Shown: in pieces, positions 32,025 to 60,112 of the stretch | Numbering within the stretch: the stretch's first letter is position 1 | Layout: every line of letters begins with the position of its first letter | IMG/VR virus record: IMGVR_UViG_3300021168_000013 | Strand: one strand, 5' to 3' | Length of the DNA stretch: 64,000 nt | From: a virus | Translations under genes and position numbers: made by a program | Notes under the pieces: generated by a model | The model's input: the letters and a program-made list of their open reading frames with translations, nothing else | What the model was told of the DNA's origin: nothing | The model's database searches: none

Positions 32025-33770
32025 ATGAGTGATATTAAGTCATTATTGACAAATAATCAAAACCCTCAGACCCGTTTGATGGAAGAAACCCGTCAATTGC
32101 GTGGTAAGTGGGAAAAGACTGGCTTGCTTGAAGGTCTTAAAGGGATTGATCAAGCTAACATGTCTATCTTGCTTGAAAATCAAGCACAACAACTATTAGG
32201 TGAATCTACCGCTACCGGTACTTCCGCAAACAGTGAACAATGGGCTGGCGTAGCTCTCCCACTCGTTCGTCGTGTGTTTGCTGAAATCGCTGCGAAGGAA
32301 TTCGTCAGTGTTCAGCCTATGAACCTCCCATCTGGTCTTATTTTCTACTTGGATTTCAAGTATGGTAATACCGTTGAAGGTAAAGTATCGAACAACTCGT
32401 TGTTCGGTGGTAACGGCATCAAATATGGTTCTACCGACGCAGCCGTTGGTGGTCTTTATGGTGCTGGTTCTGGTTACTACACAGTTAACCAATACACAAG
32501 TTCTGCTTACAGTGTAACTTCTTCTGCTGCTATCGCCACAACGGTAACACCAGATGCATATTATTCTGCTAGTGCCAATGACTTGCAATATGACAGTACC
32601 TACACAAGTGGTAGTGTTGTCACAACGGCAAATCTTTGGAGAATCGACGTGAATCTTAGTGCGAACTTCTCAAGTTCTGATTTCGCAATCAATGATTCGT
32701 CCCTCCCATTAAGTAACATCTTCAATGCTGACTTAAACAGTGTTCGTGGATGGTTCTTGTCAGGCAGTTCTTATACAACTCTCGGACAATTCAATCAAGC
32801 TAGAAACATTGGAACGCTCTCCGCTCCACAATATGTTGCTACCTTAGTTGTTTCTGGTGCTATCAATGGTGGTACTGGTTCAAATGCCTTCGGTTACATC
32901 GCTTATCAGAAGCAGCCGAATGACAATAGTCGTGGTGATTTCGAAGATGCAAATCCAGCGTCATCCAACGTATTGAACAGTATTGGTATTCCTGAAGTCA
33001 ATTTGCAACTCAATAGTGAACCTATTGTTGCTAAGACTCGTAAGTTGAAAGCCGTTTGGACACCTGAATTGGCCCAAGACTTGAACGCCTATCACAGTAT
33101 TGATGCAGAAGCTGAATTGACTGCATTATTGAGTGAATATGTATCGATGGAAATCGACCTCGAAATCCTCGACATGTTAATCACTGCTGCTCCAGCTTCC
33201 ACAACGGATGCATGGTCTGCATTTATCGGACGTGAACTTGTTAAGAACCCTGTCGTTACTGGACAACCAGCTAACTTCACTGTTCAGCAAGATAACAGTT
33301 ACAAGACTGCTTACGTCAAATCCACATGGTTCCAAACTCTTGGTAACAAGATTCAAAAAGTAAGTAACACTATTCACCAGTTGACTCTCCGTGGTGGTGC
33401 TAACTTCTTAGTTTGTTCTCCATCTGTCGCAACGGTCTTGGAATCGATCCCGGGCTATGTTGTTAACACTGACGGTGATAGTGCCAAGTTCGCAATGGGC
33501 GTGTCTCGTGTTGGTAGCTTCGCAAGTCGCTTCCAAGTCTACAAGAACCCATACATGACTGAAAACGTCATCTTGGTTGGTTTCCGTGGAAATAACTTCC
33601 TCGAAACTGGTGCAGTATATGCTCCATACATCCCACTCGTTCAGACTCCATTGGTGTACGATCCAATTAACTTCACGCCAAGACGTGGTGTATTGACCCG
33701 TTATGCTAAAAAGGTGGTCCGCCCCGAATTTTACGGAAAAATCTATGTTGCGGACTTGAACCAAGTCTAA
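32025..33770 (+). CDS. gp23: Major capsid protein (T4 gp23-like)
   Basis: KWEKTGLLEGL, PLVRRVF, VSVQPMNLPSGLIF, AKTRKLKAVWTPELAQDL, YAPYIPL, PRRGVLTRY; AAGGA RBS. Confidence 0.98.
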   Translation: MSDIKSLLTNNQNPQTRLMEETRQLRGKWEKTGLLEGLKGIDQANMSILLENQAQQLLGESTATGTSANSEQWAGVALPLVRRVFAEIAAKEFVSVQPMNLPSGLIFYLDFKYGNTVEGKVSNNSLFGGNGIKYGSTDAAVGGLYGAGSGYYTVNQYTSSAYSVTSSAAIATTVTPDAYYSASANDLQYDSTYTSGSVVTTANLWRIDVNLSANFSSSDFAINDSSLPLSNIFNADLNSVRGWFLSGSSYTTLGQFNQARNIGTLSAPQYVATLVVSGAINGGTGSNAFGYIAYQKQPNDNSRGDFEDANPASSNVLNSIGIPEVNLQLNSEPIVAKTRKLKAVWTPELAQDLNAYHSIDAEAELTALLSEYVSMEIDLEILDMLITAAPASTTDAWSAFIGRELVKNPVVTGQPANFTVQQDNSYKTAYVKSTWFQTLGNKIQKVSNTIHQLTLRGGANFLVCSPSVATVLESIPGYVVNTDGDSAKFAMGVSRVGSFASRFQVYKNPYMTENVILVGFRGNNFLETGAVYAPYIPLVQTPLVYDPINFTPRRGVLTRYAKKVVRPEFYGKIYVADLNQV

Positions 33771-33875: not shown

Positions 33876-34640
33876 ATGAGCACGAATATTGGGATATATA
33901 AAATAACAAACAAACAAAATGGAAAGTTCTATATCGGTTCATCTAAACAGATTGATCGTCGATGGTGGGAACACAAAAATGATTTAATTAAAAATAAACA
34001 TCATAATATTAAACTACAACATGCGTGGAATTATTATGGGTCAGATGCGTTCGATTTTATAATAATTGAAGAGGTAACTGCTGATAAATTATTAGAGCGG
34101 GAAGATTTCTATTTAAACACATTTAGACCATATATACGAGATATAGGTTATAATATAAATGATGTCGCTTCCGGTGGTGATTGGTTCACTAATCATCCAG
34201 ATAAAGAAAAATATAGATTAATATATTCACAAATGTCTTCGGGTAAGAACAATGCAATGTATGGCAAATCTCATTCAGAAGAATCGATTAATTTACAGAA
34301 GACACAGGCAATTGGTAGATATACATTGGAATGGTTTAAGAAGAAATGTGGTGATATTGATGGTGAGATTAAATATAAAGAACGAAACGAGAAATTAAAA
34401 AATAGGAAAATGAATTATAGTTACGACAATGGTTTGACTGGAACAACTAGAGAACCAATGTCACAAGATAACAAAAATAAAATATCAAGTAATAAAGCTA
34501 GATTAAAGTTATTAAAGCCTCAAATATTTGATGATATTAGGAGTGAATTATATACAATCAGTTTTTTGGCTGATAAGTATAAAACATCAACCACAATGAT
34601 AAAATACTATAAAAAACAAATTAAAAAGGGTATTGTTTAA
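33876..34640 (+). CDS. Free-standing GIY-YIG homing endonuclease (NUMOD3-type repeat)
   Basis: GIYKITN...FYIGSS...R..EH...HHN..LQ.AW..YG...GYN; NAMYGKSHSEES. Variant motif TATGTATA 11 nt upstream. Confidence 0.92.
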   Translation: MSTNIGIYKITNKQNGKFYIGSSKQIDRRWWEHKNDLIKNKHHNIKLQHAWNYYGSDAFDFIIIEEVTADKLLEREDFYLNTFRPYIRDIGYNINDVASGGDWFTNHPDKEKYRLIYSQMSSGKNNAMYGKSHSEESINLQKTQAIGRYTLEWFKKKCGDIDGEIKYKERNEKLKNRKMNYSYDNGLTGTTREPMSQDNKNKISSNKARLKLLKPQIFDDIRSELYTISFLADKYKTSTTMIKYYKKQIKKGIV

Positions 34641-50455: not shown

Positions 50456-51119
50456 TTCCATATTAAACCCCGATATTTGGGTAAATGAGAGTGAAATTAA
50501 CCCGAATATTAGAATAAAGCTACTTGAGGTTGCCAATGATTTTTATAAAAACAGCAAGCTTACTGCTCCAATTAAGGATGTTTTACTCTTAGGAAGCAAC
50601 GCTAATTACAACTGGACACCAACCAGTGATTTAGATACTCATATTTTAATTGACTTTTCAATGTTAGAAATGCCAATGGCTGCGGCTAAAGAGCTTACTG
50701 GATTAATAAAGAATCAATGGAATACTGAGCATGATATCCATATTAAGTCTTACAACGTTGAATTGTACATCCAAGATGCTACATCAGTTAATGCTGCTAC
50801 TGGCATATTTAGCCTATTAAACAACGTTTGGATCAAAAAACCAGCTAAAGAAAACATTGTATTGGATATGGAATTGATAAAACAGAAATATCAGGATTTT
50901 GTGTTGAAAATCAAGAATGCTATGGCCGATAACAACTTAGAGAGAATGAAGAATGTCTTAAAAGACGTGTATGATTTGAGACAGTCAGGGTTAGATAGGG
51001 CTGGGGAGTTTTCTACGGAAAATATAGTATTTAAGCTATTAAGAAACAAGAAATACATGGATGATCTTAGGGATGCCGTAAATCAGGAATACGACAAAGA
51101 AATTAGTGTAAATCAGTAA
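50442..51119 (+). CDS. Pol-beta-superfamily nucleotidyltransferase
   Basis: LLGSNANYNW...SDLDTH...VELY; C-terminal RQSGL...GEFSTEN..FK.LR. Confidence 0.8.
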   Translation: MRVYNSILNPDIWVNESEINPNIRIKLLEVANDFYKNSKLTAPIKDVLLLGSNANYNWTPTSDLDTHILIDFSMLEMPMAAAKELTGLIKNQWNTEHDIHIKSYNVELYIQDATSVNAATGIFSLLNNVWIKKPAKENIVLDMELIKQKYQDFVLKIKNAMADNNLERMKNVLKDVYDLRQSGLDRAGEFSTENIVFKLLRNKKYMDDLRDAVNQEYDKEISVNQ

Positions 51120-52605
51120 ATATAAATTTACTATTACCACAATCCCATATTCTATCATATCCATTATTTTTCATATTTTCCCATTCCGATAAATCACTCC
51201 GATATTCTTTCAATAATTTAAACAGTTTATGTTTTTGGAAACTCATTCTATGTTTTAAATCCTTATATTTATTTACTATGTAATAATAACTAACTGGAGT
51301 AAACCCCACGAATTTAAATCCAAGCTTATTATATATCTCTCCATTAAAATATCTACGATCACTATAGCTCACTATTTGTTTATATTTATAATTATTAATG
51401 AAGTAACTGAATAATTTACTGGCTCCTCCAATTACAACAGTGTTTAATTCATTGGAGAATCTCATTAGTTCCCAATCACTACTTTTATCAAACCTTGAAG
51501 TTTTTCGAAAAGACATTAATGATACCAATTTATTTTCATAATACAATCCCAATTTTATGGTGGATTTATCTTCGCCCTGTAAGTGGGTTCTATTTAAAAA
51601 AGCATTTTTATCCTTTATATCAACTTTTCTAATTTCACATTCTCTTGCATAAATTCTAGCAATACCTGTATTTATTCCTAATACGTTAGTTATTACAGAT
51701 TTAACTATTTCTTCCTTATCTCGCAATTCATTCTCAAATATATGAATCAGTCTAATTCCATGACAGGCACAAGACTTTGTTTTATTTAAATGGTATGTTT
51801 TATTAGTTCCTTTGCCATTTTCACTATGCCAATATAACCCATTCAATTCAATTGCAATATTTTTCGATGGTATATAAAAATCCAATTCTTTACCCACTAA
51901 TACTGTTCTATCACGTTGTTTAATTATTACATCTTTTGGTAATATATTCTGTAAGAATTTTAGAAATCTATCTTCCAATGTATTGCGTTTATCTGGATTA
52001 CAACTTTTACAGAAAACGTCGTTTGGTTTATATACATTATCCTCAAACTGCCTGTTACATATTAAACATTGAAACTTATAATCAATATCAAAATGATATC
52101 CTTTATATTCATCTAACGAGCATAACATCTTTATCTTATTATTAATAAATAAGTCATTGAGATATTCATAGTGTTTTTTGAACTTTGTAACTTTAGTTTT
52201 CTCAATGATGTCATCATTAAATGCTTTATTGCGACTTGATCTAGTAGATTTTATCTTATCAATATTATTGTAATGCTCAATTCCATGTTTTATTAAATTG
52301 TTATTTTTTACGGTATTAAACCATCCTTCTTTTTTACTTATCCAATCCACACCATATTTTGCCATTACGGAATTTTTTAGATTTTCTTTACCAGCAACAG
52401 TTTTCATCGGATGACATCCATATTTATCATCGAATGTTTTTTTTACTCCTTTTCGATTTTTATCTTTAATCTCATCATTATTACTACTACATTTCTTACC
52501 ACAAAATATTCTCTTATTTCTAAGATAATAACTTATATCAAATTCATTTTTACATGTCGGACAAGTCTTTTTTATTGTGTCAGGGTTTAATTTTGGTCTG
52601 GACAT
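51103..52605 (-). CDS. Hef-like free-standing endonuclease (Vsr/DUF559-type nuclease + C-terminal GNAT/Mom-like domain)
   Basis: CPTC...CGKKC; ELDFYIPSKNIAIELNGLYWHS...IRLIHIFE; HLQG...LVSLMSF...ELMRF...GGASKLF...SYSDRR...YDRIWDCG. Confidence 0.8.
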   Translation of the reverse strand: MSRPKLNPDTIKKTCPTCKNEFDISYYLRNKRIFCGKKCSSNNDEIKDKNRKGVKKTFDDKYGCHPMKTVAGKENLKNSVMAKYGVDWISKKEGWFNTVKNNNLIKHGIEHYNNIDKIKSTRSSRNKAFNDDIIEKTKVTKFKKHYEYLNDLFINNKIKMLCSLDEYKGYHFDIDYKFQCLICNRQFEDNVYKPNDVFCKSCNPDKRNTLEDRFLKFLQNILPKDVIIKQRDRTVLVGKELDFYIPSKNIAIELNGLYWHSENGKGTNKTYHLNKTKSCACHGIRLIHIFENELRDKEEIVKSVITNVLGINTGIARIYARECEIRKVDIKDKNAFLNRTHLQGEDKSTIKLGLYYENKLVSLMSFRKTSRFDKSSDWELMRFSNELNTVVIGGASKLFSYFINNYKYKQIVSYSDRRYFNGEIYNKLGFKFVGFTPVSYYYIVNKYKDLKHRMSFQKHKLFKLLKEYRSDLSEWENMKNNGYDRIWDCGNSKFIFTDLH

Positions 52606-52764: not shown

Positions 52765-53256
52765 ATGGCTGATTTATTAAACAGTAATGAAATATTCTAT
52801 ACGAATTGGGAACCCAAGACAAAGAATCGTATAATTCTCTATGCTGATGGTATCCCATCTTTCATCGTTAAGAAATGCAAGAGGCCAACAGTGAAAAGCG
52901 AAAAGAAGAACCTTGACTATATCAATACCCAAAGATATTACAAGGGAAAAACTACATGGGAAGATATTACCATGGAATTGTACGATCCAATTGTTCCTGC
53001 TGGCTCACAAGCTGTTATGGAATGGATTCGTTTATCTCACGAATCTGTCACAGGTCGTGATGGATATCAAGACTTTTATAAAAAAGATTTAACTCTTAAT
53101 ACCTTGGGACCAGTTGGTGATAAGGTAGAAGAATGGACACTTAAAGGTGCTTGGGTTAGTCAAGCTGATTTTGGTGAAGGTGATTGGTCAGACAGTGGGG
53201 AAGCATTTACGATTGCTCTTACCGTCAGTGTTGACTACTGTATACTTCAATATTAA
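52765..53256 (+). CDS. gp19: Tail tube protein (T4 gp19-like)
   Basis: EPKTKNR...KGKTTWEDITMELYDPI...VMEW...YKKD...GPVGD.VEEWTLKGAW. Confidence 0.93.
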   Translation: MADLLNSNEIFYTNWEPKTKNRIILYADGIPSFIVKKCKRPTVKSEKKNLDYINTQRYYKGKTTWEDITMELYDPIVPAGSQAVMEWIRLSHESVTGRDGYQDFYKKDLTLNTLGPVGDKVEEWTLKGAWVSQADFGEGDWSDSGEAFTIALTVSVDYCILQY

Positions 53257-54678: not shown

Positions 54679-54709
54679 AAGCTCTTAATTTAATATTAAG
54701 GGCTTTTTT
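54679..54709 (+). terminator. Intrinsic terminator after the envelope cassette
   Basis: Stem AAGCTCTTAAT/ATTAAGGGCTT, T-run. Confidence 0.8.
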
Positions 54710-54723
54710 GTTTGTGTTTTATA

Positions 54724-54731
54724 TATTTATA
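54724..54731 (+). promoter_or_regulatory. Candidate late promoter TATTTATA
   Basis: 11 nt before ATG 54735. Confidence 0.6.
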
Positions 54732-54734
54732 TAC

Positions 54735-55634
54735 ATGAAAAAGAATACGAAAATTATACTAAGTTTGGATGGTGGTGGAATGAAAGGTTATATTACTTGT
54801 GTTATTTTAGCCGAATTAGAGAAGAAATCCCAGAAAAAATGTAGTGATATATTTGATTTAATTGCTGGAACAAGTATTGGTGGTATAGTAGCGGCTTTAT
54901 TGAGTTGTGGTGTATCCGCAACAGATGCATTGACATTCTTTACAGAAGATGGCCCTAATATATTCAAAAAAACATTTTTTAACACAATTGGAGGAGTATT
55001 TGGGCCAAAATATTCTTCATCGGTAATAGAGAAGGTATTGACTGATAAGTTTAATGGATTGTTTCCAAAAACTTATTTATTAATGACCTCATATGATTTG
55101 GTAACACAGACTCCACATTTCTTTAAATTTGATACCGAAAAGTACCCATGTCAATTATGGCAAGCATCCAGAGCAACAAGTTCTGCTCAAATATTCTTTC
55201 CCGGATTTAAAGTTAATATTGCTGGCACGGATTATGTATTTTGGGATGGTGGAAATGTAGCAAATAATCCAGCAATTTGTGCCTATGCAGAATGTTATAA
55301 TTTATGGAAGAGTGACCCTATAATCCTATCTATAGGGACAGGAATTTTTAAGACAAAACTTAATGCTGATTCCATGGTGAACAGTGGATTTATTAGCAAT
55401 GCTATCACAACTGTAAGTAGTTTATTTTCTGCTGGAAGTGAAGAAGTGGATTATCAATTAGAACAGTTTATTGGTAATAATTATATCAGAATCCAACCAC
55501 AATTAGATTCTGATTTGGCTATGGATGGTGTGAGTTCAGATGATCTCAAAAAATTATCCGATTTCTCAAATACATACGTTCAATCAAAAGAATGCCAAAC
55601 GATCTTAAACAATTTTGTAAAAAATTATGTCTAA
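54735..55634 (+). CDS. Patatin-like phospholipase
   Basis: ATG 54735 (track start is inside the terminator tail). LSLDGGGMKG, nucleophile GTSIGG, DGG.VANNP all intact. Confidence 0.93.
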   Translation: MKKNTKIILSLDGGGMKGYITCVILAELEKKSQKKCSDIFDLIAGTSIGGIVAALLSCGVSATDALTFFTEDGPNIFKKTFFNTIGGVFGPKYSSSVIEKVLTDKFNGLFPKTYLLMTSYDLVTQTPHFFKFDTEKYPCQLWQASRATSSAQIFFPGFKVNIAGTDYVFWDGGNVANNPAICAYAECYNLWKSDPIILSIGTGIFKTKLNADSMVNSGFISNAITTVSSLFSAGSEEVDYQLEQFIGNNYIRIQPQLDSDLAMDGVSSDDLKKLSDFSNTYVQSKECQTILNNFVKNYV

Positions 55635-56502
55635 ACATGTATCATTTGCTTTCGGTAGATTTCAACCACCAACGATTGGACATTCAGCTTTAATTAACAA
55701 GGTTGCAGAAACATCCAAAGGAGGAGATTATTATATCTTTACAAGTCAATCTCAAGATATTGAAAAAAATCCATTGGATTATGGAACCAAAGTAAGTTTC
55801 TTGCGATTACTATTTCCACAACAAGCTGGTCACATTGTACAAGACCCTAAAATTAAAACGGTATTAGATGCTGCTGATTTTCTTGAATCTAAGGGATTCA
55901 CTGACGCCACATTTGTATGCGGTGGTGATAGAATAAATGAATTTAAAAGATTATTGGAAAAATGGAATCAGATACATCATGCATCAGGAAAAGGTTTTAG
56001 AACTCTTAATATAGTAAGTTGTGGTGATCGTGAAGATGGTGCAGAAGGTCTTTCTGGAGTCAGTGCTAGTTTAGCAAGACAATATGCTGTCAAAAACGAT
56101 TTTGAGTCATTTAGGAAGATTATACCAAAAGACCCTAAATTAGCCCAACAGATTTTCATGGCAATACGTAAGGCTATGAACTTGAGTGAGATTAAAAGAC
56201 ATATTAGAAATATATTAAATGAAATGTTAGATTCAGACGCCACTGATCCAAATGACCAACGTAATATAGCTAATTCAGAAAGACGTATAGTAAAAGACAA
56301 ATATCAAGCAGCCAAGCTTAAATCTGATGTATCTAAAAAAGAATTAAAATCCGCTAAAGAGAGATTAAATACCCAAAAGAGTGTTATTAGTAAGAATCCT
56401 GACGACATCAAAGCTGCTAAAGATGCTGTAAAAACTGCCGAAGAGAAAGTTAAGACTGCTCGTAACATGGAAGATGCCGCTCGCCGAGAGTCAGGTATAT
56501 AA
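55627..56502 (+). CDS. HIGH-motif cytidylyltransferase-like nucleotidyltransferase with basic coiled-coil tail
   Basis: FAFGRFQPPTIGH...KNPL...VCGGDR...SGVSAS..R; then ILNE|MLD and a Lys/Ala-rich helix. Confidence 0.85.
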   Translation: MSKHVSFAFGRFQPPTIGHSALINKVAETSKGGDYYIFTSQSQDIEKNPLDYGTKVSFLRLLFPQQAGHIVQDPKIKTVLDAADFLESKGFTDATFVCGGDRINEFKRLLEKWNQIHHASGKGFRTLNIVSCGDREDGAEGLSGVSASLARQYAVKNDFESFRKIIPKDPKLAQQIFMAIRKAMNLSEIKRHIRNILNEMLDSDATDPNDQRNIANSERRIVKDKYQAAKLKSDVSKKELKSAKERLNTQKSVISKNPDDIKAAKDAVKTAEEKVKTARNMEDAARRESGI

Positions 56503-56557: not shown

Positions 56558-57385
56558 ATGAATGATGAAACAATTGCAATAGTAAAACCACAACCTGTTA
56601 CCAAACCAGATATCAAAGTTGAGAGTAAATACCCAACTGAAGTAATCGATTTACCAAGTAATGGTTATTTTTATAATGAAGATAACATATTGAGTAATGG
56701 TAAGGTTGAGTTGAAGATGATGTCTGCAAGGGAAGAAGATATCTTAGCCAACGAAAATCTCATAAAAAAAGGTGAAGTATTAAACAAAATGTTGTCATCG
56801 TTGATTATTGATAAAACAATTGATGCTGATGATTTATTAGTTGGTGATAAAAATGCTTTGTTTATCGCGTCTCGTCGATTAGCTTACGGAGATGAGTATG
56901 GTCCAGTGAAGATTTCTTGTAAGAAATGTGGTGAAGAAAATAATACCAGTATAGATTTAAGCTCCATTAAAACACGTCCTTTTGATTTTAGCGGTCATGA
57001 AAAGGGAAAGAACCGTATTAAGTATACTTTACCATATAGTAAACGTGTATTAGAATACAAATTACCAACTGGTAAGGATGAAAGACTTATTGATGAAGAA
57101 TTGAAAGCATTGACCAAGATCAATAAAAATGCCAGTGGTGAAGTAACCACACGTTTGAGAAATATCATCATATCCGTAGATGGTAACACTGACAAAGGAT
57201 TCATTAGAAAATTTGTAGACAATGATTTACTATCAAGAGATAGTGTCTCATTGAGAAGTGATATAGCCAAAAATTCTCCAGACTTAGATTTAAGTTTTGA
57301 ATTTGTCTGCGAGCATTGCGATAATACGGAAAGGATGGGTGTGCCGATGACGGTCCAGTTTTTTTGGCCTAGTACCAGAGTATAA
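56558..57385 (+). CDS. Tail assembly chaperone / baseplate hub assembly protein (gp26-like)
   Basis: EVIDLPS.G..Y...MSAREEDIL...GDKNAL....R..AYG; two CxxC; ends FFWP; directly upstream of the tape measure. Confidence 0.8.
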   Translation: MNDETIAIVKPQPVTKPDIKVESKYPTEVIDLPSNGYFYNEDNILSNGKVELKMMSAREEDILANENLIKKGEVLNKMLSSLIIDKTIDADDLLVGDKNALFIASRRLAYGDEYGPVKISCKKCGEENNTSIDLSSIKTRPFDFSGHEKGKNRIKYTLPYSKRVLEYKLPTGKDERLIDEELKALTKINKNASGEVTTRLRNIIISVDGNTDKGFIRKFVDNDLLSRDSVSLRSDIAKNSPDLDLSFEFVCEHCDNTERMGVPMTVQFFWPSTRV

Positions 57386-57593
57386 GGTAGCACTCCATAA
57401 ACAAATTTTTGAATTATCTTATTACACTAATGGTGGATTTAACCAAGATATTGTGTATAGTTTACCTGTTCCACTTAGAAATTTCTATTATAACTGTTTA
57501 ATCGCAGCAAAGAAGCAAGAATCTGATGCATCTAAAGGTAATAACGCACAATCAGAAAAAAACTTAGTCGCTCATCCTCCAAAAGTCAAATAA
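57359..57593 (+). other. Probable +1 frameshift site (T7 at 57359-65) and 76-codon extension (gp51/gpT-like)
   Basis: The +1 frame is open 57351-57593 with no ATG/TTG and first GTG only at 57453. It reads FGLVPEYKVALHKQIFELSYYTNGGFNQDIVYSLPVPLRNFYY... Confidence 0.7.
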
Positions 57594-57625: not shown

Positions 57626-60112
57626 ATGGCTGTACCAACCACTGATGTAAAACAATTGGCTGAAAGTCTTAAGCTCGCTCAAGAATTGAATGAGGCTAAG
57701 ACTAAAGAAGTGTCAGAGTTAAATGAACAATTTAACATAGAGAAGCGCATCAATAATCTATTGGATATCAGGCTTGATAAAAATCAAAAACTTGAGTCGG
57801 AAATCAATAAAGCTCAGAAATTAGCTGCTGCATACCAAGACCAGTTAGCCAAATCAATAGTAAATAAAACAACACTTTCTCAAGTTATTAATCAAAAACA
57901 GCAATTACTCAATGTAATGCAGAAAGAAGGGATAGCAAATCAACAAGCTGGTATTGATCTAACTGAGAAGTTGATTAAATTAAGGAAGGAGTTGGGCAAA
58001 CAGGAAGGTAATATATCCGATATCACCGATTCAGCCAAGAAAGAATTGGTAATTGCTAAACAGAAGACTGAAGAACTACATAAACAAGGAAAGTTAACGA
58101 GATTGTATGAGACTGCTTTAGATGCATTACCCGGTTCTACTGGTAAACTACTAAAGTTAATGGTAGAAGAAGATGGAATATTATTATCATGGATCGCCAT
58201 AGTGGAACAGGCATTTCATTATTTCAATAAATTAGAAGAATCCGCTTTTTCCATGAGGAAGTCTCTTGGATTAATGAGAGAAGATGGTGATAAGGTAAAC
58301 GTTGCAGCAAATACGTTAAGAAACAATATATTATCAATTGTATCGGAAACTAGAAATTTGGGAGTAAACTTTGAGGATGTGCAGAAAACTATAACTGCCA
58401 TAAGTAATAAATTTAATTCGTTGGTAGCAATGGATAATAATTTGGTAAAAGTAACTACGTTGTTATCAACTCAATTAGGTATAGCTGGTGATGAAACCAC
58501 TGGATTTTTAAATGTAATGGCGGGAATTTCCAGAACTACAGCCGCTTCTAACATAAACATGATTGGATTCACTAAGACTTTGGCAAATGCTGCCGGAATT
58601 CCACTTGGGAAGGTTATGCATGATATAGCAAATGCCAGTGATAGTGTAAGACTTTATACGGATGGAACAGCAGCCTCTTTAGCTAAGGCTTCAGTATTTG
58701 CTTATGAAATGGGAACTTCTCTTGATAAGATAGCTGAAACATCCCACCAGTTATTAGATTTCCAAACCAGTATAGAAAATGAAATGGAAGCAAGTGTCCT
58801 TATTGGAAAGAATATAAATTTCCAAAGAGCGAGAGAGTTGGCTTTTCATAAAGATATCATCGGAGCAACTCAAGAAATATTGAGGATCACCAAGGAAACG
58901 GATTTCAATCGAATGAATCCTTTCCAGATGGAAGCGTTTGCTAAGGCTACTGGAAAATCTGTGGCTGAATTACAAGACATGTTGGTCGCCGATAAAAATA
59001 TCCAGTGGATTCGACAACATGGTACACAAGAACAACGTGAACAGTTATCCAATCTTCAGAAAATGAAGAGAATGAGGCAGGATGAAGCTAATGATATAGG
59101 AAAGAGAGCAATCCTTGATTTACAAACACAGGCAAATCAAGAAAGAATGGCAATATTACAAAACAAGTTCAATCAATTGATATTACAATTGGTAGACCCT
59201 TTAGTAGAAATACTTGATCCCTTATTATCCATTGCAACATATGTTTTACCTTTGATATTAAAAGATATATTACCGTTAATTGGAGTGTTTAAATTTATCT
59301 CTAGATTCGGAGTTGATATTATAAAGATAATTTCCTCTGTTGGTAAAATGGGAGCAAGCATTGGGTCAGCAATTTCTAAACTATCTGGAATATTTAAAAT
59401 TGGAAGAGTTGGATTGAAAGCCATTCCTGTACTGGGAGAAATGATAATTGCTCTTGAGGTTATTGGTTCATTATTTGGTACTGTGAAATCAGCAATAAAA
59501 GACTTTCAAACCGGACATTTTGGGTCTGGTATAGCAAAATTAATTTTCGGAGTTCCAAAGGCTATAATAGACGTAACACTTGGATCAATATATGATATAT
59601 TCCAAACTGTACTAGGTTGGTTTGGAGTTCAATTACCAAGAGGGATATGGAATGGTATAAAATCATTAGGTGATGTAATAGCTTCCGCAATAGGCGAACC
59701 ATTTAAAAAAGCTTGGAATTGGATTGAGGATTTGTTCGTAGGACATTCACCATCCAAACTAGCATTAGGTATTCTAAGAGGAATGGTATCGATAGGTGGA
59801 CTTTTATTGGATGCTATAACTTCTCCTTTTATCCATTCATTTAATTTTATTAGCGATTTGTTTGGAGGTACTAAAATACCTAAACCAAGTACATTAATTA
59901 GTGATATAGTTAATGGTAACACACCAACAACAACGGCCACAACCAAATCTACTAAAGCTGATGCAACGAATAATCAAATAGTACAGAAACTTGAAGAATT
60001 GATTGGATTGATGAAGGCTGGCGGAATTGCTGTTAATATTGATGGAAATAGGGCTAGTTATCTATTAGCTGAGAATACCAGAAAACGTGGGGGATTAGGA
60101 GCAACTACTTAA
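57626..60112 (+). CDS. Tape measure protein
   Basis: Helical coiled-coil N-half, hydrophobic Gly/Ile/Phe-rich periodic C-half, terminal GGIAVNIDG. About 120 nm tail if roughly 0.15 nm per residue. Confidence 0.85.
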   Translation: MAVPTTDVKQLAESLKLAQELNEAKTKEVSELNEQFNIEKRINNLLDIRLDKNQKLESEINKAQKLAAAYQDQLAKSIVNKTTLSQVINQKQQLLNVMQKEGIANQQAGIDLTEKLIKLRKELGKQEGNISDITDSAKKELVIAKQKTEELHKQGKLTRLYETALDALPGSTGKLLKLMVEEDGILLSWIAIVEQAFHYFNKLEESAFSMRKSLGLMREDGDKVNVAANTLRNNILSIVSETRNLGVNFEDVQKTITAISNKFNSLVAMDNNLVKVTTLLSTQLGIAGDETTGFLNVMAGISRTTAASNINMIGFTKTLANAAGIPLGKVMHDIANASDSVRLYTDGTAASLAKASVFAYEMGTSLDKIAETSHQLLDFQTSIENEMEASVLIGKNINFQRARELAFHKDIIGATQEILRITKETDFNRMNPFQMEAFAKATGKSVAELQDMLVADKNIQWIRQHGTQEQREQLSNLQKMKRMRQDEANDIGKRAILDLQTQANQERMAILQNKFNQLILQLVDPLVEILDPLLSIATYVLPLILKDILPLIGVFKFISRFGVDIIKIISSVGKMGASIGSAISKLSGIFKIGRVGLKAIPVLGEMIIALEVIGSLFGTVKSAIKDFQTGHFGSGIAKLIFGVPKAIIDVTLGSIYDIFQTVLGWFGVQLPRGIWNGIKSLGDVIASAIGEPFKKAWNWIEDLFVGHSPSKLALGILRGMVSIGGLLLDAITSPFIHSFNFISDLFGGTKIPKPSTLISDIVNGNTPTTTATTKSTKADATNNQIVQKLEELIGLMKAGGIAVNIDGNRASYLLAENTRKRGGLGATT

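Follow-up and report, generated by a model that had tools for sequence, protein, structure and literature searches.

Probable programmed +1 ribosomal frameshifting at the 3′ end of a phage gene of the T4 gp26/gp51 family

A single gene of the T4 gp26/gp51 family lies in the window, that is, in the whole 64,000-nt stretch of DNA analysed here from an uncultured T4-related phage, and comparison of homologous loci makes it almost certain that some selected recoding event makes two products from it. The event is probably a programmed ribosomal +1 slip at the 3′ end of the gene. In the proposed mechanism, most ribosomes would read ...CAG UUU UUU UGG CCU... to the stop at 57383, giving a 275-aa short form that ends FFWPSTRV. 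In a minority, a one-base forward slip would occur while UGG occupies the A site and the P-site tRNA is paired with the second codon, which is UUU here and CUU in a sister clade. Once the tRNA had re-paired with UUU, translation would continue at GGC and add 75 residues, yielding a long form of 344 aa (...TVQFFGLVPEYK...). The two products would be the counterparts of the T4 hub assembly chaperones, gp26 consisting of the domain only and gp51 carrying a C-terminal helical tail in addition. By position and logic, they may serve the tape-measure protein of the following gene as gpG/gpGT do in lambda, and the long form is expected to be the minor product by analogy with gpG/gpGT. An earlier note on this DNA had predicted forms of 275 aa and approximately 344 aa arising by recoding into the +1 frame, and the comparative evidence described below supports that prediction.

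The zero-frame ORF (56558..57385, + strand) encodes the short form, with the C terminus QFFWPSTRV*. Its 3′ end reads CAG (57356) TTT TTT TGG CCT AGT ACC AGA GTA TAA, where the stop codon TAA (57383..57385, +) lies six codons past the second Phe codon. The shift site (57359..57370, +) consists of the T7 run TTT TTT T (57359-65) and the conserved 3′ context GG CCT. In the +1 frame, a TGA at 57348-50 precedes an open stretch that starts at 57351 and ends with TAA at 57591-93. The extension in this frame (57366..57593, +) comprises 75 codons (GLVPEYKVALHKQIFELSYY...) followed by TAA, and one forward step at T7 gives a trans-frame product of 344 aa (...TVQFFGLVPEYKVALHKQIFELSYY...). Neither ATG nor TTG is present in the +1 frame of the gene (57351-57593), and its first GTG is found at 57453, downstream of the conserved FFGL..YY core. 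The in-frame T7 is unique to this gene among the 15 window ORFs examined (14 long ORFs and this gene). When the frames, T7, the stops, and GTG were read again, all features described in the earlier note were found at the coordinates it gave. Its frame and ORF stand, and two of its counts, a tail of 76 residues and a GTG about 35 codons in, become 75 residues as counted from GGC at 57366 and 34 codons.

The window covers part of a phage virion module with head, tube, chaperone, and tape-measure-like genes; a search for DNA similarity of the window to phage records found none. The gene is situated between the tail tube gene (52765..53256, +; phrog_4542 tail tube protein, E 3.7e-24) and a tape-measure-like gene encoding 828 aa (57626..60112, +; a weak match to phrog_58, E 2e-7), the former setting the order tube, chaperone, tape measure. 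The same slot as that of the latter is annotated as a tape measure protein in Flavobacterium phage immuto, and a long ORF is present there in many relatives. Five unrelated ORFs lie between the tube and chaperone genes, three of them unassigned. The other two, a patatin-like phospholipase gene (PF01734, E 2.9e-22) and a cytidylyltransferase-like gene (phrog_3041/395), span 54708-56502 and are unusual cargo for a tail module. Two homing-endonuclease-like genes are also found in the window. One is of the GIY-YIG type and is located just 3′ of the major head gene (33876-34640, +), and the other, a 500-aa gene (phrog_3339/559; 51103-52605, −), runs in the opposite direction and immediately precedes the tail tube gene. 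The match of the major head protein (581 aa, 32025-33770) to phrog_138 is limited to residues 303-564, leaving an N-terminal part of about 300 aa unexplained.

The 275-aa protein matches Pfam PF12322 ‘T4_baseplate’ with 52.1 bits (cut-off 24.5), residues 45-270 being aligned with positions 9-219 of the 219 in the profile. The match stops at W270, the slip site. No known chaperone family was matched in the Pfam scan of the protein. The protein also matches phrog_150 ‘baseplate hub’ at positions 12-233 of 282. For the extension alone, no PHROG family was matched and no Pfam hit passed its cut-off, and a word-based search started from it yielded no candidate. The homologues listed (at least 120) are 246-303 aa long, and none reaches the length of the fused product; the 120 listed all stop after FFWP or FFYP. 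Judged by sequence, the gene belongs to the T4 gp26/gp51 family (PF12322) of ‘hub assembly chaperones’ and not to a recognised tail-assembly-chaperone sequence family. The name tail assembly chaperone given in the earlier note holds only in part: gene position, the two-product logic, and a weak fold match suggest a chaperone role for the window gene, but the sequence family is a different one. A zinc-ribbon-like CxxC...CxxC pair is found in the window protein, C121/C124 (56918-56927) and C250/C253 (57305-57314). The pair is also found in T4 gp26 and the long paralogues. Non-Cys residues occupy these positions in four loci (L012, L013, L015, and L016), indicating that metal binding is not universal in the family.

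Structure prediction is consistent with a chaperone-like N-terminal domain and with a folded long form. Window residues 20-115, which form the N-terminal domain, were folded with a pLDDT of 91 and compared with 48,161 chains. Only three chains reached a Z of at least 5, all of them below 8, and the next hit was at Z 3.5: 3fgx, an uncharacterised Bacillus protein (Z 6.3, rmsd 3.8, 81 aligned), 2ob9, the HK97 tail assembly chaperone (Z 5.8, rmsd 4.0, 82 aligned), and 3klu, YqbN (Z 5.4, rmsd 4.2, 88 aligned). The N-terminal 85-93 residues in the AF2 model of P0122, an in-frame long paralogue described below, likewise bear a weak likeness to YqbN (3klu), 3fgx, and 2ob9 in VIA-align. Foldseek against the PDB gave no match, and a sequence search of solved structures returned nothing. 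These models are suggestive of a chaperone fold in the N-terminal domain. The P0122 model has a pLDDT of 93.3, and the extension forms confident helices at 213-276, so the long form is, as far as a predicted model can tell, a real protein.

IMG/VR was scanned twice, which yielded 94 loci, L001-L014 (23-58% identical) and L018-L097 (42-58%); the alignment of divergent homologues was too variable for use in a locus search. After removal of duplicates, 89 distinct +1-type loci remained, the window included, with 42-58% protein identity; they are phylogenetically related, so that counts among them are not counts of independent events. The hexamer at the site is TTTTTT in 78 of these loci, TTTCTT in 10, and TTCTTT in one, and the next base is T in all. 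At the second Phe codon, every one of the 89 has [T/C]TT then T, and the sequence after the run is GGCC, ACCC, or ATCC. The zero frame ends 5-9 codons past the first Phe codon in all loci except one. The +1 ORF is about 61-116 codons long in the relatives, apart from three shorter ones that are probably cut by contig ends. The peptide encoded by it is conserved as FFGL.PEYK..H..IF.L.YY..G...VY..P..LR.FY. An extension HMM found its target in the +1 frame in 95 of 96 loci, the exceptions being L077 (−1 frame) and L014 (too divergent to score).

Positional information content places the switch of wobble variability, out of frame 0 and into frame +1, exactly at the run. Upstream of the run, the variable positions are the third positions of frame 0 (−1, −4, −7, and so on). 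Just after it, the variable positions are 12, 15, 18, and 21, the third positions of frame +1, while the frame-0 third positions 11, 14, 17, 20, and 23 are constrained. By this pattern, both frames are under purifying selection. Outside the site, 80% of the Phe codons in these genes are TTT, and TTTTTT would thus be expected in 60 of the 89 loci anyway, compared with 78 observed; this preference weakens the codon argument from the conservation of TTTTTT. The earlier note had raised the conservation of T7 together with dual coding. The site, the +1 ORF, and the peptide are kept in all 89 loci, but an uninterrupted T7 is found in 78 only. Recurrence of the arrangement in 89 distinct homologous loci is, on the sequence comparison, far beyond chance.

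Among cultured relatives, Flavobacterium phage immuto and Microcystis phage Mel-JY01 are the closest, with 41-45% identity. Their gene order is sheath, tube, gp26-like gene, small extension ORF, and tape measure. T7 is identical in cultured Mel-JY01, and the cultured immuto isolates, together with 10 metagenome loci, have the non-homopolymer TTTCTTT. No slip is annotated in the Mel-JY01 and immuto records, in which the extension frame appears as a separate small hypothetical protein with an arbitrary start. Small ORFs in the extension frame lie at L016:4770-5006 (PP395634) and L015:4845-4955 (MW353176), and neither record contains a joined CDS. The gene is present in a single copy in Mel-JY01, in immuto, in one 97%-complete IMG/VR genome, and in the window, as counted with a clade profile, the PF12322 model being too insensitive for the genomes of this clade. 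The long form is absent from every record examined; its tail is unannotated or appears as a tiny hypothetical protein or a ‘truncated gp51’.

Relatives that reach the extension by other routes serve as natural controls. In two loci, the homologous extension is accessed through the −1 frame at canonical heptamers, U_UUU_UUC in L014 and A_AAU_UUC in L077 (L014:3790-4046 and L077:3240-3480), indicating that the direction of the slip has changed within the family. A search with the extension against 1.84 billion cluster representatives gave 183 hits, mostly gene calls of 57-120 aa, and about 14 of the 183 are in-frame fusions to the PF12322 domain (271-318 aa). The closest fusion, P0122, is 30% identical to the window protein across residues 27-266 and continues without a slip through ..DHSFFGITPQYKPAIHKEIFNLAYY.., its junction DNA being TCG TTT TTC GGC. 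The fusion junction in the paralogues reads ..SFFGITPQYK... All four fusion loci examined (P0122, P0128, P0140, and P0185, in L098-L101) have a second PF12322 paralogue directly upstream, and these short paralogues end with FFWP..* and lack a +1 ORF. The tandem paralogues occupy L098:1595-3709, L099:474-2320, L100:603-2356, and L101:1-1720.

The Phe codons in the four short paralogues are TTC TTT, TTC TTC, TTC TTC, and TTT TTT, and the Pro codons are CCG, CCA, CCC, and CCG. This decay where no slip occurs suggests that the U-run and CCT are fixed only where the +1 ORF must be reached. The retention of FFWP in the same paralogues indicates that this tail is probably part of a functional short form, which would also explain why the rare GGC is kept in the +1 frame. 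The tandem arrangement of short and fused long paralogues looks, on this comparison, like a two-gene replacement of the frameshift, as in T4 genes 26 and 51.

Several other explanations of the second ORF have to be weighed against a ribosomal +1 slip. The ORF might be a separate small gene with its own start, the ‘truncated gp51’ as annotated, since gene callers report a stand-alone ORF of 57-120 aa and a hypothetical protein is annotated there in Mel-JY01 and immuto. This reading is very unlikely. In addition to the lack of ATG and TTG and the position of the first GTG after the FFGL..YY core in the window, the +1 frame is shut by a stop less than 5 codons upstream of the site in 56 of the 89 loci, and an upstream ATG is present in only 10. 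Among 37 cluster representatives called as stand-alone ORFs, the N-termini are unrelated and conservation starts exactly at FFGL, the very point at which the in-frame fusions join. The conserved independent start in homologues that the earlier note had named as contrary evidence was not found, and an independent start was rejected on all four grounds (start codons, upstream stops, N-termini, and fusion junctions). An assembly or sequencing error, or a pseudogene, would make the true gene a simple in-frame fusion (T6) or a decaying one; homopolymers are error-prone and distant relatives do have in-frame fusions. However, the same T7 recurs across dozens of independent assemblies as well as isolate genomes, the 120 homologues listed terminate without exception after FFWP or FFYP, and both frames are under purifying selection. 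T7 in Mel-JY01 and the non-homopolymer TTTCTTT in immuto, with the same frame offset, led us to reject an error, whose probability is negligible. Hardly more credible is a phage tRNA with an enlarged anticodon loop that reads UUUU (or UGGC) as a four-base codon. The window contains no tRNA of any kind, and complete relatives have tRNA-Leu(UAA) alone, the set Ser, Glu, and Gln, or none at all; none of these is unusual, and a dedicated tRNA was rejected. Obligatory quadruplet reading would, moreover, abolish the conserved FFWP short form.

The two remaining alternatives concern the kind of slip. In transcriptional slippage, RNA polymerase would drop one U or add two on T7, and part of the mRNAs would be fused in frame, as a seven-base homopolymer in 78 of the 89 loci might allow. 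The other 11 loci, including cultured immuto, have an interrupted run (TTTCTTT or TTCTTTT) and still retain the +1 ORF, which disfavours polymerase slippage as a general mechanism. Bacterial polymerases generally need more than seven identical bases to slip efficiently, and the usual outcome is one added base, which would give the wrong frame here. Overall, transcriptional slippage is unlikely. A −2 ribosomal slip, in which the P-site tRNA-Phe moves back two bases and one extra Phe is inserted, had been dismissed in the earlier note as unable to give this frame. That statement was wrong: −2 leads to the same frame as +1, and U7 permits perfect re-pairing. A −2 shift is reported for the tail chaperone of phage Mu. 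At the interrupted sites, however, the tRNA on the second Phe codon would land on UCU in the TTCTTTT locus (L029), and that on CUU would land on UUC in the TTTCTTT loci, where a first-position G:U pair would be needed. The +1 slip fits all 89 sites, and the interrupted variants make −2 less economical, so we consider it improbable. The predicted junctions differ, QFFGL (TVQFFGLVPEYK) for +1 and QFFFGL (TVQFFFGLVPEYK) for −2. We infer a +1 slip of the ribosome in preference to a −2 or a transcriptional one.

For the ribosomal +1 slip, the position of the slipping tRNA should be considered. The earlier note had pointed out that both Phe tRNAs can re-pair at +1 on U7. If the P-site tRNA slips on the second codon (from UUU or CUU to UUU, with UGG, UAC, or UAU in the A site), all 89 sites are accommodated, against 88 for the first codon (UUU_Y). 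UUU-pyrimidine sites are prone to +1 shifts in E. coli. No excess folding of downstream RNA was detected (mean z −0.49 over 88 loci), and neither a Shine-Dalgarno-like stimulator at a workable distance nor a conserved purine-rich element within 20 nt upstream was found. A GAGGAG-like stretch is present 25-30 nt upstream of the site and encodes conserved Glu residues. In this phage, GGC, the A-site codon in the +1 frame, is used 5.2 times per 1000 and UGG, that in the zero frame, 12.1 times. A simple hungry-codon model does not fit, since GGC is the rarer of the two.

The earlier note's remark that T4 has separate gp26 and gp51 proved to be the key to the finding, as the PF12322 matches point to these genes as the two-gene version of the pair in T4. 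T4 gp26 (208 aa) matches PF12322 with 215.6 bits over residues 1-206, and T4 gp51 (249 aa) matches with 177.5 bits over residues 1-201 and continues with a 48-aa tail. By sequence, gp26 and gp51 are paralogues, one the domain alone and the other the domain with a tail. The C terminus of gp26 is KEFFELL*, in which FF aligns with FF of the slip site and 3 residues follow; the window short form ends 8 residues beyond the aligned FF. No match was obtained in hhalign between the extension profile and gp51 or a gp51 profile. Nothing significant past the N-terminal domain was found when the extension or the long paralogues, as single sequences or profiles, were compared with T4 gp51 in hhalign, and the extension HMM found nothing in six frames of T4 113-123 kb. 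Along the 282 positions of phrog_150, coverage extends to 280 for gp51, to 273 for P0122, and to 250 for the window trans-frame product; it crosses the P0122 junction and extends 16 residues past the junction in the window product. Since similarity between the extension and the gp51 tail was not detected, their equivalence rests on architecture and on this coverage. Both T4 proteins are listed as hub assembly chaperones, and gp51 is described as essential, of unknown function, and absent from the particle (Leiman et al. 2010, PMC3004832, the former in Table 2).

Frameshifted tail chaperone genes are already known, as are +1 cases in actinobacteriophages. A frameshift conserved in tail assembly chaperone genes, including lambda gpG/gpGT, was reportedly described by Xu, Hendrix and Duda in 2004 (Mol Cell 16:11). 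The PRFect paper includes 350 annotated forward cases among actinobacteriophage joined genes, so that +1 is less unusual at this locus than the earlier note had held. In view of these known frameshifts, the newness here lies in the different protein family, the sense-codon +1 site, and the link to the two genes of T4; a full-text literature search found no paper reporting a frameshift in gp26/gp51-family genes. We offer, tentatively and with slightly less than even confidence, a broader proposal. The PF12322 proteins would be distantly related in structure to gpG/gpGT and would represent the long-missing tail assembly chaperone pair of T4-type myoviruses. An old and strict requirement for two forms, one short and one long, would have been satisfied in four interchangeable ways: a slip in the +1 direction, one in the −1 direction, tandem paralogues, or, in T4, separated genes. 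YUU_UGG_C would be akin to the prfB site but would lack a stop codon and a stimulator, and host tRNAs alone would suffice for it. What T4 gp26 and gp51 do in hub assembly has been obscure for decades. If they are the two-gene form of a frameshifted pair of short and long chaperones located ahead of the tape-measure gene, they would act on gp29 as gpG/gpGT act on gpH, which gives a testable model. Within the family, slips of +1 and −1, in-frame fusion, and duplication also form a natural series, each taking the place of another at one homologous junction, which is useful for studying what makes a sense-codon +1 site work.

The window gene and the T4 pair share the PF12322 family, and in both cases the short form stops at the conserved FF and the long form, predicted here, continues into a C-terminal tail. 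Hub and tape-measure genes are neighbours in each, and the tandem paralogues of L098-L101 mirror the T4 pair. T4, however, has two separate, divergently transcribed genes and no recoding, whereas one gene would give both forms here, and the similarity of the extension to the gp51 tail is not detectable by sequence. In marine phages, a ‘gp51’ has been noted that reaches only about 20% of the length of its T4 counterpart: roughly the first 200 residues are missing, and the similarity is confined to the C-terminal region (Sullivan et al. 2010, PMC3037559). Like the extension, this short ‘gp51’ of marine cyanophages is a tail ORF that follows a gp26-like gene and has no start of its own, and L014 has an ORF of this kind that would be reached by a −1 slip. 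The differences are that no frameshift was proposed in PMC3037559, that the clade is another one, and that the variant seen (L014) uses a −1 heptamer.

The site of E. coli prfB (RF2; CUU_UGA_C) is similar in that the P-site tRNA slips from YUU to UUU, and the sister-clade site CUU_UGG_C is one base off the prfB site. It differs in that the A site holds a stop codon in prfB but a sense codon (UGG, UAC, or UAU) here. The Shine-Dalgarno sequence 3 nt upstream is lacking here, and the outcome would be two products instead of autoregulation. Compared with lambda gpG/gpGT, the window gene has neither the X_XXY_YYZ heptamer nor the −1 shift on it, nor do the 89 +1-type loci, −1 being seen only in L014 and L077. 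It also belongs to another and much larger protein family (275 aa vs about 140 aa) that has the CxxC...CxxC pair. The likenesses are the slot between the tube and tape-measure genes, an N-terminus common to the two products, and an overlapping, start-less second ORF at a conserved slippery site, with the slip conserved across very divergent sequences. In the predicted model, the N-terminal domain may also resemble the HK97 chaperone 2ob9, one of its three best, though weak, fold matches.
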